This document shows, piece after piece, positions 24,780-43,760 of a stretch of 64,000 nt of DNA. Positions within the stretch are counted from its first letter, which is position 1, and the number at the start of each line of letters is the position of its first letter. The DNA is from Escherichia coli. GTDB taxonomy: Bacteria; Pseudomonadota; Gammaproteobacteria; Enterobacterales; Enterobacteriaceae. The position numbers and the translations under genes were made by a program. The stretch lies in NCBI RefSeq assembly GCF_003018255.1, contig NZ_CP027440.1, one strand, 5' to 3'. The notes beneath the pieces are model-generated. The model had not been told where the DNA came from. It worked only from the letters and a program-made list of their open reading frames with translations, and ran no database searches.

Positions 24780-25844
24780 ATGGAACATTTCGACGTGGCG
24801 ATTATTGGCCTCGGCCCGGCAGGTTCGGCGTTGGCGCGAAAGTTAGCAGGCAAAATGCAGGTGATCGCGCTGGATAAAAAGCACCAGTGTGGTACTGAAG
24901 GTTTCAGCAAACCCTGCGGCGGTCTGCTGGCACCGGACGCGCAGCGATCTTTTATTCGCGATGGACTGACGCTTCCTGTCGATGTGATCGCCAACCCGCA
25001 GATTTTCAGCGTCAAAACCGTCGACGTCGCCGCATCGCTCACGCGTAACTACCAGCGAAGCTATATCAATATTAATCGCCATGCTTTCGACTTGTGGATG
25101 AAATCTTTGATCCCCGCCAGCGTTGAGGTTTACCACGATAGTCTGTGTCGAAAAATCTGGCGTGAGGATAATAAATGGCATGTCATTTTTCGTGCAGACG
25201 GTTGGGAGCAGCATATTACCGCCCGCTATCTGGTCGGTGCCGATGGTGCCAACTCGATGGTGCGGCGACATCTCTACCCGGATCATCAGATTCGTAAATA
25301 TGTCGCCATCCAGCAGTGGTTCGCAGAGAAACATCCGGTACCGTTCTACTCCTGCATCTTTGATAATGCGATAACTGACTGTTACTCATGGAGTATCAGC
25401 AAAGACGGTTATTTTATCTTTGGCGGTGCCTATCCCATGAAAGACGGTCAGACGCGTTTCACGACGCTGAAAGAGAAAATGAACGCCTTTCAGTTCCAGT
25501 TTGGTAAAGCGGTGAAAAGCGAGAAATGTACCGTGCTGTTTCCCTCACGCTGGCAGGATTTTGTCTGCGGTAAGAACAACGCCTTTCTGATTGGTGAAGC
25601 GGCGGGATTTATCAGCGCCAGTTCGCTGGAGGGGATTAGCTATGCGCTGGATAGCGCAGAGATTCTGCGTTCGGTGTTACTGAAGCAGCCGGAGAAGAGC
25701 AACGCCGCCTACTGGCGCGCCACCCGCAAACTGCGTTTAAAACTCTTCGGCAAAATAGTAAAAAGCCGATGCCTGACCGCACCGGCTTTAAGAAAGTGGA
25801 TTATGCGCAGTGGTGTGGCGCATATTCCACAGTTGAAAGATTAG
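24780..25844 (+). CDS. cbrA: FAD-binding oxidoreductase CbrA (colicin E2 tolerance), 354 aa
   Basis: ORF 24759..25844 (track start GTG); ATG at 24780 gives [19 protein letters not shown] (Rossmann GxGxxG). Confidence 0.85.
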
Positions 25845-27133
25845 CCAACGCGCTTCACATCGCCCACCAGCAGGATGTAAGAGAGCGCGCCAATCAACGC
25901 GACGGCGGAGATATAAACCAGTGCAGGTGCGAAACCGTAACCCTGCGCCAGGTACCCCACCACCAGCGGAACGGTGATGCCGCCCAGACCACCGGCAAAG
26001 TTAAACACGCCGCCGGTTAAACCAATCAGGCGCATCGGTGCCAGAGAAGAGACCAACGACCAGGTAATCGAAGCAAAACCGTTGCCGAAGAATGCCAGCG
26101 CCATCAGGCACATAATCATCATCGGATCGTTGGTGTAGTTCGCACCCATAATGCAGGTGGAGATCAGCAAGCCGCAGATAATCGGCGTTTTACGCGCAAA
26201 GCCCAGTGAAAAGCCCTTACGTACCAGCAGATCCGCGACCCAGCCTGAGAGCAGGACGCCAATAAACGCCGCAAGGAACGGCACTGTGGTCATAAAGCCC
26301 GCTTTCAGCGCCGTGATTCCTTTTTCCTGAGTTAAATAGTTCGGGAACCAGGTTAAGAAGAACCACAGTGTAGAAGCCACCGCAAATTGCCCAAGATAGA
26401 CACCGATCAGTTTACGATGGAACACCAGTTTCCAGTCTTTGGCTGTTAACGGCTGACGCGCCTCTTTCTTCACCGGCGCATCGCCATCCACCAGACCACC
26501 GCCATCACGAATGTAATCCAGTTCAGCTTTGCTGATGCCTTTGGTCAGACGCGGCGGCTGATAAACCTTAAACCAAATCAGCGACCAGATAATGCCGATA
26601 CCACCGGTGACAATGAACACCCAGTGCCAGCTCAACATCTCCTGAATCCAGATCAGCAGCGGAGTCAGAAACGCCAGACCGACAAACTGACCAGACGTAT
26701 AAAAACCAACGGCAGAAGCACGTTCATGTTCCGGGAACCAACTGGTTACCATCCGGTTATTGGTCGGGAACGCGGGCGCTTCGAAAATACCGGTTATCGC
26801 GCGCAGACCAATTAATGACATTAAGCCCGTGGCAAAGCCCTGGAATAACGTCGCCACTGACCAGCCAAATATCGCAATAAAATAAGTCACGCGTGAACCT
26901 ACGCGATCTAAAAACCAACCACCGGGGATCTGACATAGCGTATAAAGCCAGGCGAAGGCTGAAAATACATAGCCCATTTGCGCTTTAGTAATACCAAACT
27001 CTTCCTGAATATGGGCAGAAGCCACGGCCAGGTTAGCGCGGTCAACATAACAAATGACCACCGTAATAAAGATCATCACCAGCGTCAGATAACGCCGACG
27101 CCCCGGCTTTGCTGCATTAACGGGAATATCCAT
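25841..27133 (-). CDS. dgoT: D-galactonate:H+ symporter DgoT, 430 aa
   Basis: ORF 25841..27178; start at [16 protein letters not shown]...; MFS transporter. Confidence 0.9.
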
Positions 27134-27252
27134 AGCGAGCTTTCTCCAGATTTTGGGCATAGCGAAGCCGCTCACCATGCCCTGTAATTTACAGAGGGTT
27201 ATATTTTTGTATTACTGTTTTAGTGCCCGATGAGGGGCTTACGTGGCAGGAA

Positions 27253-28401
27253 TTACCACTCTGCTACGCTGTTATCTTCATGACGCCAGAGCGGATTACG
27301 CCAGTCCGGGGCATTTTTACTGAACTCAATAACTTTAGCTTCGTCGATTTCCACACCTAAGCCCGGTTTCGTTAATGGTTTAAAGAAACCGCCGACCATG
27401 CTGAAGTCTTCTTTGTTTTTCACAAAGTCGAGTAACTCCGCGCCTTTGTTGTAATGAATGCCCATACTTTGTTCCTGAAGTACGGCGTTATAGGAAACAA
27501 AGTCGATATGCAGGCAAGCCGCCAGTGCAATCGGTCCGAGCGGACAGTGCGGCGCAAGGGTCACGTCATAGGCTTCTGCCATTCCGGCAATTTTGTAGCA
27601 TTCGGTAATACCGCCCGCGTGGGAGAGATCTGGTTGCAGAATCGAAATACCACCCGCCTCCAGCACACGTTTAAAATCGAAACGTGAGAACATGCGTTCA
27701 CCCGCCGCCAGTGGAATATGCGTTTGTGCCGCCAGTTTCGGGTAGTATTCGGCTTGTTCCGCCAGCACCGGTTCTTCAATAAACAGTGGGCGATACGGCT
27801 CCAGTTCTTTAATCAGCACTTTCGCCATCGGCGCGCTGACGCGACCGTGGAAATCAAGACCAAACTCAATCTGATTGCCAAAAGCTTCACGAATTTGTGC
27901 CACGGTGTTGACCGCCGCATCTACCGCGCGGGAGTTATCAATTAGCCCCAGTTCTTCACAACCATTCAGTTTGAAGGTATCGAAGCCGATTTCGCGCAGG
28001 GTTTTTATGCCGTCGATAACATCCGCCGGACGATCGCCGCCGACCCAACTGTAGGCTTTAATTTTGTCGCGAACCAGGCCGCCCATCAGTTGCCAGACCG
28101 GCGCATTCAGCACTTTGCCTTTGATATCCCATAACGCCTGGTCGATCCCGGCGATGGCGCTCATCAGGATTGGACCGCCACGATAAAATCCGGCGCGATA
28201 CATCACTTGCCATAAGTCATTGATGCGCGATGGATCCTGACCAATCAAATAGTCACCCAGCTCGTGAACTGCCGCTTCCACCGTGCGGGCGCGGCCTTCA
28301 ATCACTGGCTCGCCCCAGCCGACCACGCCTTCATCGGTTTCAATTTTCAGGAACATCCAGCGGGGAGGTAAACGATACGTGGTAATTTTGGTGATTTTCA
28401 T
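27253..28401 (-). CDS. dgoD: D-galactonate dehydratase, 382 aa
   Basis: ORF 27253..28401; enolase-superfamily sequence. Confidence 0.95.
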
Positions 28402-29015
28402 TGCACTGCCTCTCGATACGCCTTAACAAATGCTGCTGCCTGCTGCGCGGTGCGTTCTACGGACTGCCCGGCGCGATAGAGATCGCTGCCTAAGCCCGCC
28501 CCTGCACAACCTGCGTCTATCCACTGCGCCAGGTTTTCTGGCGTCACGCCGCCAACGGCAAAGACTGCGATGTCCGGTGGTAATACCGCTTTTAACGCTT
28601 TGATGTATTGCGGACCAAAAGCCGATGACGGAAATATTTTCAGCGCCTGAGCGCCCGCGTCGAGCGCGGTAAAGGCTTCGGTCGCCGTCGCACAGCCGGG
28701 GCAGACGGTCATGCCGTAGCCCACCGCACGGCGGATCACTTCACTATGGATATTGGGCGTAACGATGAGCTGACAGCCCATTCTGGCGAGCGCATCGACC
28801 TGTTCAGGTTTGAGTACCGTACCTGCGCCAATCAACGCCTTGTCGCCATACGCATCAACGATGGCGGGAATGCTCTGCTCCCATTGTGGAGAATTCAGCG
28901 GGATTTCAACCGCGTCGAACCCGGCGTCAATCACCGCGCCAACATGTGCCAGTGCCTCGTCGGGCGTAATGCCGCGCAAAATGGCGATCAGCGGGAGTTT
29001 AGTTTGCCACTGCAT
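28398..29015 (-). CDS. dgoA: 2-dehydro-3-deoxy-6-phosphogalactonate aldolase, 205 aa
   Basis: ORF 28398..29015; 4-nt overlap with dgoD. Confidence 0.9.
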
Positions 29016-29877
29016 GAGCGATGCTCCTTATACCAGCCTGAAATGCCGTGTCGCCTGCCACCGCCGTCACGTCGCAACCCATCGCCTGAAAGGCTTGCTG
29101 GTAGCGCACGGTCAGCGATGTTCCGGCGACAAGGGTGATGACTTGTTGATGGGTCACATAGTCGCGCATACTGGCGACCTCTGCGCCAATCAACAAACCA
29201 GAGAGAAATTCGCTGACCTGTTCGCGGGGAAGTGTTCCCAGCACATGCGAGGCGCGAACTTCAAAAAGCTGCGGCAATATGTCGGGAGCATTAAGGCCAC
29301 GCTCAAGACCAGCCGCGAAAGCATCGGCAGAGTTTTCCTGCGGCGGCAAACCTGCGCCAATCAATGAGTGATTTAACAGTAAATGATGTAATTCACCGGT
29401 CATCACGGTGCGAAAATCGTTAATTTGCTGGCTATCGGCCTGCACCCATTTGCAATGCGTACCGGGCATGACATAAAGAGAGGAAGGAGCGAGAGTGCGC
29501 GCGCCGATCAATTGTGTTTCTTCGCCGCGCATCACATTGTGGTTATCGTCATGAGAGACGCATAATCCGGGAATAATCCAGATATTGTCGCCAGCAGATG
29601 TTAATTGTTCGCCAATAGACGAAAAACGTGCAGGAACGGATAAATACGGCGCGACTTTCCAGCCGACATTGCTGCCGACCATTCCTGCCATTACCACTGG
29701 CGTATTCTCTTCACGCCAGTCGGTCGTCACTTCTGCTAACACCGCAGCCGGAGATTTTCCGTTCAGGCGCGTGACGCCTGCTTCTGATTGCCTGCTCTCC
29801 AGGCAGTGGTCGCCCTGATAAAGCCAGGCGCGCAGATTGGTCGATCCCCAGTCAATTGCGATGTAGCGAGCTGTCAT
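28999..29877 (-). CDS. dgoK: 2-dehydro-3-deoxygalactonokinase, 292 aa
   Basis: ORF 28999..29877. Confidence 0.9.
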   Translation of the reverse strand: MTARYIAIDWGSTNLRAWLYQGDHCLESRQSEAGVTRLNGKSPAAVLAEVTTDWREENTPVVMAGMVGSNVGWKVAPYLSVPARFSSIGEQLTSAGDNIWIIPGLCVSHDDNHNVMRGEETQLIGARTLAPSSLYVMPGTHCKWVQADSQQINDFRTVMTGELHHLLLNHSLIGAGLPPQENSADAFAAGLERGLNAPDILPQLFEVRASHVLGTLPREQVSEFLSGLLIGAEVASMRDYVTHQQVITLVAGTSLTVRYQQAFQAMGCDVTAVAGDTAFQAGIRSIAHAVAN

Positions 29878-30563
29878 GTGATTTCCTTTAACCTTCGTGT
29901 CGAGCTGGCAATCATGGTAAGCGCCGCCTGCTCTGCCGCATCGCCGTCCTGATGCCGTATAGCATCGAACAGCGCCTTATGTTCCTGGAGCGTTTGCGGC
30001 ATGTTGGCCTCATCGCCCATCCAGGTTCGTTCAAAAACCGCCCGCTGCAGCGAACTGATCGCAATGCTAAGTTGCTGTAACACCGGGTTATGCACCGACT
30101 GCAGCACCGCCTCGTGGTAGCGAATATCCGCTTCGTTAAACGCTTCGCGGTCCTGATTGTTGGCAATCATCTCGTTCAGCGCCGATTCAATCTGCGCCAG
30201 ATCGCTGGAAGTCGCGCGCTCTGCTGCCCAACGGGCAATCGCCGGTTCCACCAGATTTCGCACTTCGCTCATGGCACTGATAAGCCGTGGGTCGTAGTCG
30301 TTTTCCAGCACCCATTGCAGTACGTCAGTGTCGAGGTAATTCCACTGGTTACGCGGTGCCACAAACGCGCCGCGATAACGTTTCATTTCAATCAGCCGCT
30401 TCGCCATCAGCGAACGGAACACCTCACGGATGATGTTGCGCGAGGTTGCAAACTCCTCACAGAGTTCCGCCTCAGCCGGAAGCGGCGAGCCTGGCACGTA
30501 TTTACCGTGAACGATCTGTTTACCCAGCGTAATGACTATGCGATCGGTTTTATTGAGAGTCAT
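29874..30563 (-). CDS. dgoR: GntR/FadR-family repressor DgoR, 229 aa
   Basis: ORF 29874..30563; N-terminal winged HTH. Confidence 0.9.
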   Translation of the reverse strand: MTLNKTDRIVITLGKQIVHGKYVPGSPLPAEAELCEEFATSRNIIREVFRSLMAKRLIEMKRYRGAFVAPRNQWNYLDTDVLQWVLENDYDPRLISAMSEVRNLVEPAIARWAAERATSSDLAQIESALNEMIANNQDREAFNEADIRYHEAVLQSVHNPVLQQLSIAISSLQRAVFERTWMGDEANMPQTLQEHKALFDAIRHQDGDAAEQAALTMIASSTRRLKEIT

Positions 30564-30673
30564 GGAGAGTCCTTGTGCTCTGTATGTTCTTCTCTACTTT
30601 ACCCCGATCGATGCATAACGCGGCAACTTTGTAGTGCCAGCGTGATGACGTTCGCGTTTGCCGCGTGCGTAAT

Positions 30674-30702
30674 GTAGTACAAAATTATATTGTTGTACTA
30701 CA
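30674..30702. promoter_or_regulatory. Candidate DgoR operator: inverted repeats TGTAGTACAA / TTGTACTACA upstream of dgoR
   Basis: Two 10-bp repeats 9 bp apart read from sequence, plus a related half-site TTGTAGTGCCA about 35 bp upstream. Confidence 0.6.
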
Positions 30703-30840
30703 ATTTAGATCACAAAAAGAACAATGCATAAAAAAATGACATGCGTCGGGCAGAAATCTGAAAAGGGATATCAGGCGCTAAACAGGAGGAAAAGAAGAGT
30801 ATGCTTTCAACGGCTTAGCTACTCGTTTAAAGGATTAATC

Positions 30841-31497
30841 ATGAAGTTGAATCTTAAGGGATTTTTTAAGGCTGCCGGTTTGTGTTCTTTGGCATTTGCG
30901 TTGACCGGATGTATCACCTGGGGATTGGTTTCCAATACTGCAGGCCGTCCACATGCCGAGCAATGGCGGTCAGACACGATTAAGGGTTTATCGCTGGCTG
31001 AAGACAGTAACGGTACGAAAGGCTATGTTTTTGTTGGTGAATCGTTGGACTATCTGTTGACCACCGGCGGCGGTGAGGTGGTTAAAATGCTGAACGATCC
31101 GGCAATTCATGGTGAAAGAATCACCGTTTCTGATAACGCGAAATTTATTTTAAGCAGCAGTAATAAGAAATTCTCTGGTGCTATTACGCTCTATTACGAC
31201 TGGAACAACGAAGAAGATAAGGCACTGGCAACACAATATGGTTTTATTTGTGATACCCGCCGTTGTACATGGATGCTGGACGGCCTGAAAGGCTCTATCC
31301 ACCAGAAAAATAAAAAAGCGGATTACTCAAACGTGATGGTTTTCCATCAACCCTTTACGGTGGGATTTTATGAGTACAAAGCATCAGATGGCGTTCCGCG
31401 CGGCCTCGTTAATGCGCTGCTGCCAGTCACTCTTACGCTGGATATAGTAACGTCACCACTCCAGTTCCTGATTTTATGCACGACCAGAAATTGTTAA
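30841..31497 (+). CDS. yidX: Lipoprotein YidX, 218 aa
   Basis: ORF 30724..31497; start at [24 protein letters not shown] (lipobox) after an AGGA Shine-Dalgarno. Confidence 0.8.
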
Positions 31498-40476: not shown

Positions 40477-42123
40477 ATGGATTCGCAACGCAATCTTTTA
40501 GTCATCGCTTTGCTGTTCGTGTCTTTCATGATCTGGCAAGCCTGGGAGCAGGATAAAAACCCGCAACCTCAGGCCCAACAGACCACGCAGACAACGACCA
40601 CCGCAGCGGGTAGCGCCGCCGACCAGGGCGTACCGGCCAGTGGCCAGGGGAAACTGATCTCGGTTAAGACCGACGTGCTTGATCTGACCATCAACACCCG
40701 TGGTGGTGATGTTGAGCAAGCTCTGCTGCCTGCTTACCCGAAAGAGCTGAACTCTACCCAGCCGTTCCAGCTGCTGGAAACTTCACCGCAGTTTATTTAT
40801 CAGGCACAGAGCGGTCTGACCGGTCGTGATGGCCCGGATAACCCGGCTAACGGCCCGCGTCCGCTGTATAACGTTGAAAAGGACGCTTATGTGCTGGCTG
40901 AAGGTCAAAACGAACTGCAGGTGCTGATGACGTATACCGACGCGGCAGGCAACACGTTTACCAAAACGTTTGTCCTGAAACGTGGTGATTACGCTGTCAA
41001 CGTCAACTACAACGTGCAGAACGCTGGCGAGAAACCGCTGGAAATCTCCTCGTTTGGTCAGTTGAAGCAATCCATCACTCTGCCACCGCATCTCGATACC
41101 GGAAGCAGCAACTTCGCACTGCACACCTTCCGTGGCGCGGCGTACTCCACGCCTGACGAGAAGTACGAGAAATACAAGTTCGATACCATTGCCGATAACG
41201 AAAACCTGAACATCTCTTCGAAAGGTGGTTGGGTGGCGATGCTGCAACAGTATTTCGCGACGGCATGGATCCCGCATAACGACGGTACCAACAACTTCTA
41301 TACCGCTAATCTGGGTAACGGCATCGCCGCTATCGGCTATAAATCTCAGCCGGTACTGGTTCAGCCTGGTCAGACTGGCGCGATGAACAGCACCCTGTGG
41401 GTTGGCCCGGAAATCCAGGACAAAATGGCAGCTGTTGCTCCGCACCTGGATCTGACCGTTGATTACGGTTGGTTGTGGTTCATTTCTCAGCCGCTGTTCA
41501 AACTGCTGAAATGGATCCATAGCTTTGTGGGTAACTGGGGCTTCTCCATTATCATCATCACCTTTATCGTTCGTGGCATCATGTACCCGCTGACCAAAGC
41601 GCAGTACACCTCCATGGCGAAGATGCGTATGCTGCAGCCGAAGATTCAGGCAATGCGTGAGCGTCTGGGCGATGACAAACAGCGTATCAGCCAGGAAATG
41701 ATGGCGCTGTACAAAGCTGAGAAGGTTAACCCGCTGGGCGGCTGCTTCCCGCTGCTGATCCAGATGCCAATCTTCCTGGCGTTGTACTACATGCTGATGG
41801 GTTCCGTTGAACTGCGTCAGGCACCGTTTGCACTGTGGATCCACGACCTGTCGGCACAGGACCCGTACTACATCCTGCCGATCCTGATGGGCGTAACGAT
41901 GTTCTTCATTCAGAAGATGTCGCCGACCACTGTGACCGACCCGATGCAGCAGAAGATCATGACCTTTATGCCGGTCATCTTCACCGTGTTCTTCCTGTGG
42001 TTCCCGTCAGGTCTGGTGCTGTACTATATCGTCAGCAACCTGGTAACCATTATCCAGCAGCAGCTGATTTACCGTGGTCTGGAAAAACGTGGCCTGCATA
42101 GCCGCGAGAAGAAAAAATCCTGA
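40477..42123 (+). CDS. yidC: Membrane protein insertase YidC, 548 aa
   Basis: ORF 40477..42123. Confidence 0.97.
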
Positions 42124-43744: not shown

Positions 43745-43760
43745 TGTGATTCGATTCACA
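43745..43760. promoter_or_regulatory. CRP-binding site TGTGATTCGATTCACA at the tna promoter
   Basis: Perfect TGTGA-N6-TCACA palindrome about 90 bp upstream of tnaC. Confidence 0.8.

Follow-up and report, generated by a model that had tools for sequence, protein, structure and literature searches.

The operators IR1 and IR2 of the dgo operon in Escherichia coli K-12 were reportedly characterised by Singh et al. in 2019 (J Bacteriol 201:e00281-18). In K-12, DgoR represses the whole dgo operon, its own gene dgoR included (PMC11705089), and two DgoR dimers occupy a pair of inverted repeats that lie close together and overlap the dgo promoter, IR1 being a perfect inverted repeat and IR2 carrying one mismatch (PMC11705089, PMC12288454; Chaba laboratory). 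The Sort-Seq text of Belliveau 2018 (PMC6003448) describes a K-12 repressor footprint at -140..-110 from the dgoR start codon, which vanished when dgoR was deleted or D-galactonate was present, and names DgoR as the factor most strongly enriched when a -145..-110 probe was used in affinity mass spectrometry. The same text places a class II CRP site with TGTGA at -160..-140 from the start codon, gives TACATT as the wild-type dgo -10 element, infers three overlapping RNA polymerase sites and locates one more site for RNA polymerase at -30..-70 from the start codon. Palindromes whose GT and AC cores are 3 nt apart represent the FadR-subfamily form, which has been assigned to DgoR, FadR, LldR and PdhR, among others (Suvorova 2015, PMC4494728). 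In K-12, IR1 and IR2 are already known: their prediction dates from 2015 and their validation from 2018-2019. The present analysis concerns the corresponding promoter in a 64-kb stretch of E. coli DNA (64,000 nucleotides, hereafter the window), and comparison at the sequence level supported the assignment of its repeats to the known DgoR operators IR1 and IR2 of the E. coli dgoRKADT promoter.

Positions 30564-30840 of the window correspond exactly to the 277-bp intergenic region between the divergent genes dgoR (minus strand) and yidX (plus strand). Because dgoR lies on the minus strand, this region has to be read in reverse. The gene order matches that of the dgo-yidX locus in the K-12 annotation, with the following genes:

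25841-27133, minus strand: dgoT, product 99% identical to K-12 (2 of 430 residues differ)
27253-28401, minus strand: dgoD, NCBIfam match above the curated cut-off
28398-29015, minus strand: dgoA, NCBIfam match above the curated cut-off
28999-29877, minus strand: dgoK, product 96% identical to K-12 (11 of 292 residues differ)
29874-30563, minus strand: dgoR, GntR/FadR-type repressor of 229 aa, identical to K-12 DgoR at 229/229 residues
30841-31497, plus strand: yidX, product 62% identical to K-12 YidX (133/213)

DgoR consists of an N-terminal GntR winged-helix domain (PF00392, E = 2.9e-14) and a C-terminal FCD domain (PF07729, E = 2.1e-27). The NCBIfam scan returned no DgoR-specific model above its cut-off, and the identity of the protein is based on its 100% match to K-12 b4479 together with the RefSeq naming. 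An earlier note on this DNA had placed the repeats in front of dgoR as the first gene of dgoRKADT, which is borne out by the K-12-identical DgoR and by dgoK, dgoA, dgoD and dgoT downstream of it. These four genes (25841..29877, minus strand) form the remainder of the operon that the dgo promoter controls. Divergence from K-12 is uneven inside the operon, with DgoR identical, DgoT differing at 2/430 and DgoK at 11/292 residues. On the other side, the intergenic region is about 98% and DgoR 100% identical to K-12, YidX only 62%, and the first ~20 bases of yidX still closely match K-12. The divergence must therefore increase sharply somewhere inside yidX, a pattern that suggests divergent alleles or recombination in E. 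coli. Among 5,426 complete E. coli genomes, none was identical to the window; the best identity was 98.2% over 30400-31000, and 99.6% for gyrB.

Read in the direction of dgoR, the intergenic region is arranged as ...TTTTGTGATCTAAA-TTGTAGTACAA-CAATATAATT-TTGTACTACAT-TACGCACGCGG...CTGGCACTACAAAGTTGCCG...GGTAAAGTAG...AAGGACTCTCCATG. The two operators are:

30693-30703, minus strand: IR1, TTGTAGTACAA, a perfect 11-bp palindrome at -140..-130 from the dgoR ATG
30672-30682, minus strand: IR2, TTGTACTACAT, an 11-bp palindrome with one mismatch at -119..-109 from the dgoR ATG

The centres of IR1 and IR2 are 21 bp apart, and the pair spans -140..-109 from the dgoR ATG. Both 11-mers are identical to the K-12 sequence, none of the 7 intergenic positions that differ from K-12 falls within either of them, and the window from 30708 to 30687 exactly matches the published IR1 22-mer CTAAATTGTAGTACAACAATAT (PMC11705089). 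The proposal that the repeats are DgoR sites is thus supported by their identity to K-12 IR1 and IR2 and by the exact match to the published 22-mer. Their proposed GntR-family character was equally upheld, as GT occupies positions 3-4 and AC positions 8-9 of TTGTAGTACAA and TTGTACTACAT, giving cores 3 nt apart in the TKGT-N3-ACMA form. The earlier note had expected a DgoR footprint within 30630-30710, and the K-12 footprint at -140..-110, as given in the Sort-Seq text of Belliveau 2018 (PMC6003448), falls there, because IR1 at -140..-130 and IR2 at -119..-109 match it. A search for TTGTASTACAW in the 64-kb window yielded 4 exact strand-matches, with 0.08 expected, and none of 100 shuffles reached 4. 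Three of the four matches fall on IR1 and IR2, and the fourth lies within the yidC coding sequence. There, positions 41782-41792 carry TTGTACTACAT, identical to IR2, at codons LALYYM; we considered this copy as a further DgoR site and rejected it as probably due to chance, because it lies within the coding sequence of yidC.

To assess conservation, a scan with one genome per species was used, which gave 80 loci with DgoR relatives (79-99% identity, mostly from Enterobacterales genera). The sequence set (n=80) comprised 78 usable upstream regions, K-12 and the window, and the operator pair showed the following features:

IR1 perfect: 75/80 sequences
IR1-to-IR2 start spacing of 21 bp: 79/80 sequences
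IR2 with exactly one mismatch: 73/80 sequences
GT/AC cores invariant: 79-80/80 sequences

The 10-bp spacer between IR1 and IR2 is nearly unique to each species, and the leader is mostly poorly conserved in the same 80 sequences. The footprint of the boxes therefore reflects selection on the boxes themselves, and not a low overall divergence of the region.

The repeat search described the 30-bp block as a single hyphenated palindrome, with arms at 30673-30687 and 30688-30702 that are 87% complementary. The earlier note had likewise joined two 10-bp arms into one inverted repeat. The second arm, TTGTACTACA, lies at 30693-30702 as it stated, and the first, TGTAGTACAA, exists but is located at 30673-30682, 1 nt away from the 30674-30683 that had been given. 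The arms are indeed inverted repeats, complementary at 10/10 positions, although they are separated by 10 bp (30683-30692) instead of 9 bp. One may accordingly ask whether the long inverted repeat represents a single operator, in which each 10-bp arm provides the half-site for one subunit of a DgoR dimer or tetramer. The complete complementarity of the arms and the 87% self-complementarity of the 30-bp block agree with such an arrangement, and a cooperative dimer-of-dimers contacting both boxes would be compatible with it. We nevertheless regard a single operator as highly improbable. Taken singly, each 11-mer is already palindromic, its GT/AC cores being 3 nt apart as in the site of a FadR-subfamily dimer; one winged-helix dimer cannot span half-sites 21 bp apart; the published model places two dimers on two inverted repeats (PMC11705089, PMC12288454); and each box is conserved whereas the central spacer is not. 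The larger 30-bp symmetry arises automatically from two near-identical palindromes. What had been taken for half-sites of one repeat are therefore better described as two complete 11-bp palindromic operators, one per arm.

Analysis of the sequence around the two operators gave the following known or candidate promoter elements:

30699-30714, minus strand: CRP site, TGTGATCTAAATTGTA, whose left half TGTGA (30714 to 30710) is perfect and whose right half is weak
30684-30689, minus strand: TATAAT, between IR1 and IR2, where K-12 has TATAAG
30671-30676, minus strand: TACATT, inside IR2, the -10 hexamer of the dgo promoter, which CRP activates and DgoR represses
30596-30601, minus strand: TAAAGT, within the conserved block GGTAAAGTAG (30594-30603, -40..-31 from the dgoR ATG)

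The CRP 16-mer overlaps IR1 by 5 bp, and its centre is at about -42.5 from the start predicted from the -10 hexamer. It has 3 mismatches to the consensus, a level expected by chance, and the total number of matches in the window in the CRP consensus search was below the chance expectation. Since the sequence by itself stands at chance level, the support for this site comes from the literature and from conservation, with TGTGATC retained in most of the 80 sequences across genera. The half-site contains GATC at 30708-30711, the A being at -147 from the dgoR ATG. Elsewhere in the 64-kb window, a single zero-mismatch match to the CRP consensus 16-mer was found, TGTGATTCGATTCACA at 43745-43760, which, judged from gene order, presumably belongs to the tna operon promoter. 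The TATAAT allele between the boxes also occurs in E. coli 042 and ST2747 and thus represents a shared polymorphism; as a perfect -10 consensus, it is a candidate for one of the RNA polymerase sites that overlap here, which it may strengthen. The GGTAAAGTAG block is one of the best conserved parts of the leader in the 80 sequences (mostly Enterobacterales). By our own reckoning, its TAAAGT probably serves the downstream RNA polymerase site (-30..-70) as -10 element, the match for the -35 element being ambiguous. A scan of the region for consensus sigma-70 promoters and terminators found nothing, a result that is expected for a weak activator-dependent promoter and is not counted as positive support.

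Taken together, these features very probably describe a D-galactonate-inducible, autoregulated dgoRKADT promoter with two operators, IR1 and IR2. DgoR binding, release by D-galactonate and cAMP-CRP dependence have been shown in K-12 on the same sequences (PMC11705089 and the Sort-Seq text of PMC6003448). In this model, one DgoR dimer would bind each 11-mer, the functional symmetry TTGTA-N-TACAA lying within each, and the 21-bp distance, equal to two helical turns, would place both dimers on the same face of the DNA. Transcription would start about 7 nt after TACATT, near 30664-30666, so that IR1 would be centred at about -34 and IR2 at about -13. With this start, IR1 would overlie the right half of the class II CRP site together with the -35 region, and IR2 would cover the -10 hexamer TACATT (30676 to 30671); bound DgoR would therefore exclude both RNA polymerase and CRP. 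Binding of D-galactonate to the FCD domain would release DgoR from the DNA, after which cAMP-CRP could activate transcription.

The position of the boxes in a shared 277-bp divergent intergenic region also raises the question of whether they mainly or additionally control yidX, given that paired GntR-family sites between divergent genes can serve both sides (Suvorova 2015, PMC4494728). We find this unlikely. Across genera, the spacing between the boxes and the dgoR ATG stays constant, sequence conservation is absent on the side of the CRP site that faces yidX, the promoter scan of the region found no yidX promoter, and the overlap of the boxes with the dgo -10 and -35 elements mapped in the Sort-Seq text fully accounts for them. 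Control of the dgo promoter by IR1 and IR2 thus stays the preferred reading.

A third, related element lies closer to dgoR:

30629-30639, minus strand: box 3, TGGCACTACAA, where K-12 has TGGTACTACAA; candidate auxiliary operator

On the plus strand, box 3 reads TTGTAGTGCCA, and 33 bp separate it from the first arm to its right. The earlier note had pointed to a related half-site about 35 bp upstream; the sequence exists close to that distance, but it is a full-length degenerate box and not a half-site. Nor is it upstream: because dgoR is on the minus strand, "upstream" in plus-strand coordinates means towards dgoR, which places the element in the leader, downstream of the dgo promoter. Box 3 is located at -76..-66 from the dgoR ATG, or about +26..+36 from the predicted start, and begins 43 bp after the start of IR2. 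This phasing corresponds to about 4 helical turns from IR2 and about 6 from IR1.

Comparison of the 80 sequences revealed a site with no more than two mismatches at this position in 77 of them, and the spacing from IR2 is 43 bp in 71/80 and 42-44 bp in 79/80. Among shuffled leaders, only 1.2% contained a site with no more than two mismatches in a comparable range. Within the box, G3, T4, A5, C9, A10 and A11 are near-invariant, and positions 2 and 8 are variable. Box 3 is perfect in none of the 80 sequences, and in 67/80 it departs from the motif at exactly one position; the window copy does so at two, one of them the otherwise invariant T4. The third of three DgoR sites predicted for E. coli b4479 is CACGCTGGTACTACAAAGTTG (Suvorova 2015, PMC4494728, S1 File). 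In the literature, box 3 was found as a computational prediction only, and we found no experimental test of it; the 2025 models of the Chaba laboratory include two operators only (PMC11705089, PMC12288454), and the K-12 Sort-Seq text describes no repressor signature at -76..-66 (Belliveau 2018, PMC6003448).

These observations can be read in two ways. Judged from its sequence and position, box 3 may be a functional low-affinity auxiliary operator, a proposal that we rate as an even call. Such an operator could act as a roadblock, through looping, or by occlusion of the downstream RNA polymerase site. The stronger form of this proposal, in which box 3 is a real, deliberately sub-optimal third operator in higher-order repression and the C allele of the window is an operator-down variant, appears doubtful to us. 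On the other reading, to which we give slightly less than even weight, box 3 is no DgoR operator and is conserved as part of, or beside, the -35/UP region of the downstream promoter, its likeness to the motif being incidental. The lack of a perfect copy in any of the 80 sequences fits an incidental likeness, as do the restriction of the experimental papers to two operators (PMC11705089, PMC12288454) and the tolerance of a T->C change in the core by the window strain. In addition, according to the Sort-Seq text (Belliveau 2018, PMC6003448), the RNA polymerase site at -30..-70 reaches with its upstream edge into the downstream half of the box, and no repressor signal is described there. An incidental likeness is harder to reconcile with the fixed distance of 42-44 bp from IR2 in 79/80 sequences, with a pattern of variation that mirrors the DgoR motif, with the 1.2% frequency of comparable sites in shuffled leaders and with the independent prediction of box 3 as a DgoR site (Suvorova 2015, PMC4494728).

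Conservation of an RNA structure would be another way to account for the box. Folding of the 103-nt leader gave z = 0.23 against shuffles, indicating no significant RNA structure, and a permissive Rfam scan of 30400-31000 returned no family. An explanation of box 3 through RNA structure is unsupported on both grounds, which also counts against a non-operator role. We specifically considered a stem-loop around box 3 formed by the 9-bp inverted repeat 30618-30626/30658-30666 and rejected it in view of the leader z value; in addition, K-12, 042, ST2747 and E. whittamii have a different left arm. A direct repeat, GATCGATGCATAA/GAACAATGCATAA, present in two copies with 85% identity, was treated as a chance occurrence.

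The closest allele of the intergenic region is that of E. coli 042, from which the window differs at two positions, 30636 and 30664. The change at 30636 (T->C on the minus strand) is the one that alters position 4 of box 3, which is otherwise invariant, and the change at 30664 is A->G, near the predicted transcription start. A 41-nt query centred on the C at 30636 had 0 matches in the 5,426 complete E. coli genomes, and the control query with the K-12 allele matched 4,855 genomes. Two private changes in 277 bp are in line with the gyrB distance of about 0.4% to the nearest relative, and thus no selection is needed to explain them. If box 3 is an operator, it would permit a looped or roadblock complex that the current two-operator model omits, and the T->C change of the window would be a natural operator-down allele with galactonate catabolism partly derepressed. 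An operator-level variant of this kind could interest specialists, as D-galactonate use and dgoR mutations are discussed for gut commensal E. coli. Overall, box 3 is a position-conserved element across Enterobacterales and a loose end of modest value beside otherwise known biology.

Compared with the FadR-subfamily operators (TKGT-N3-ACMA; FadR, LldR, PdhR, GlcC and ExuR), the dgo sites are likewise palindromes whose GT/AC cores are separated by 3 nt, each occupied by one dimer that the effector releases. Specific to dgo are the TTGTA(G/C)TACAA sequence, the two operators 21 bp apart over the -35 and -10 elements, and the leader box. For the last of these, the nearest analogue would be LldR of lldPRD, with a promoter-distal and a leader operator, for which looping has been proposed. 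In Salmonella, the hemimethylated GATC at -147 has been tied to Dam-dependent ON/OFF heterogeneity of dgoR (PMC7708049), and derepression of dgo by P22 Pid has been described (PMC3573128). The Salmonella enterica dgo promoter carries this GATC within the CRP half-site at -147 from the ATG (PMC7708049), as does the window at 30708-30711, and the S. enterica locus in our set has the same layout of IR1, IR2 and box 3. Bistability and Dam dependence have been shown in Salmonella only (PMC7708049). The prediction for b4479 lists all three boxes, TTGTAGTACAA, TTGTACTACAT and TGGTACTACAA (Suvorova 2015, PMC4494728, S1 File); it is a prediction only, and the box 3 of the window, TGGCACTACAA, is one step further from the motif. 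The closest likeness is to the K-12 dgo promoter (Belliveau 2018, PMC6003448). The differences are confined to the flanks: between the boxes TATAAT replaces TATAAG, three further changes follow directly on the -10 hexamer, and box 3 has the T->C change. The repressor itself is identical, and so are both 11-mers with their distance to the ATG, the -10 TACATT and the CRP half-site.
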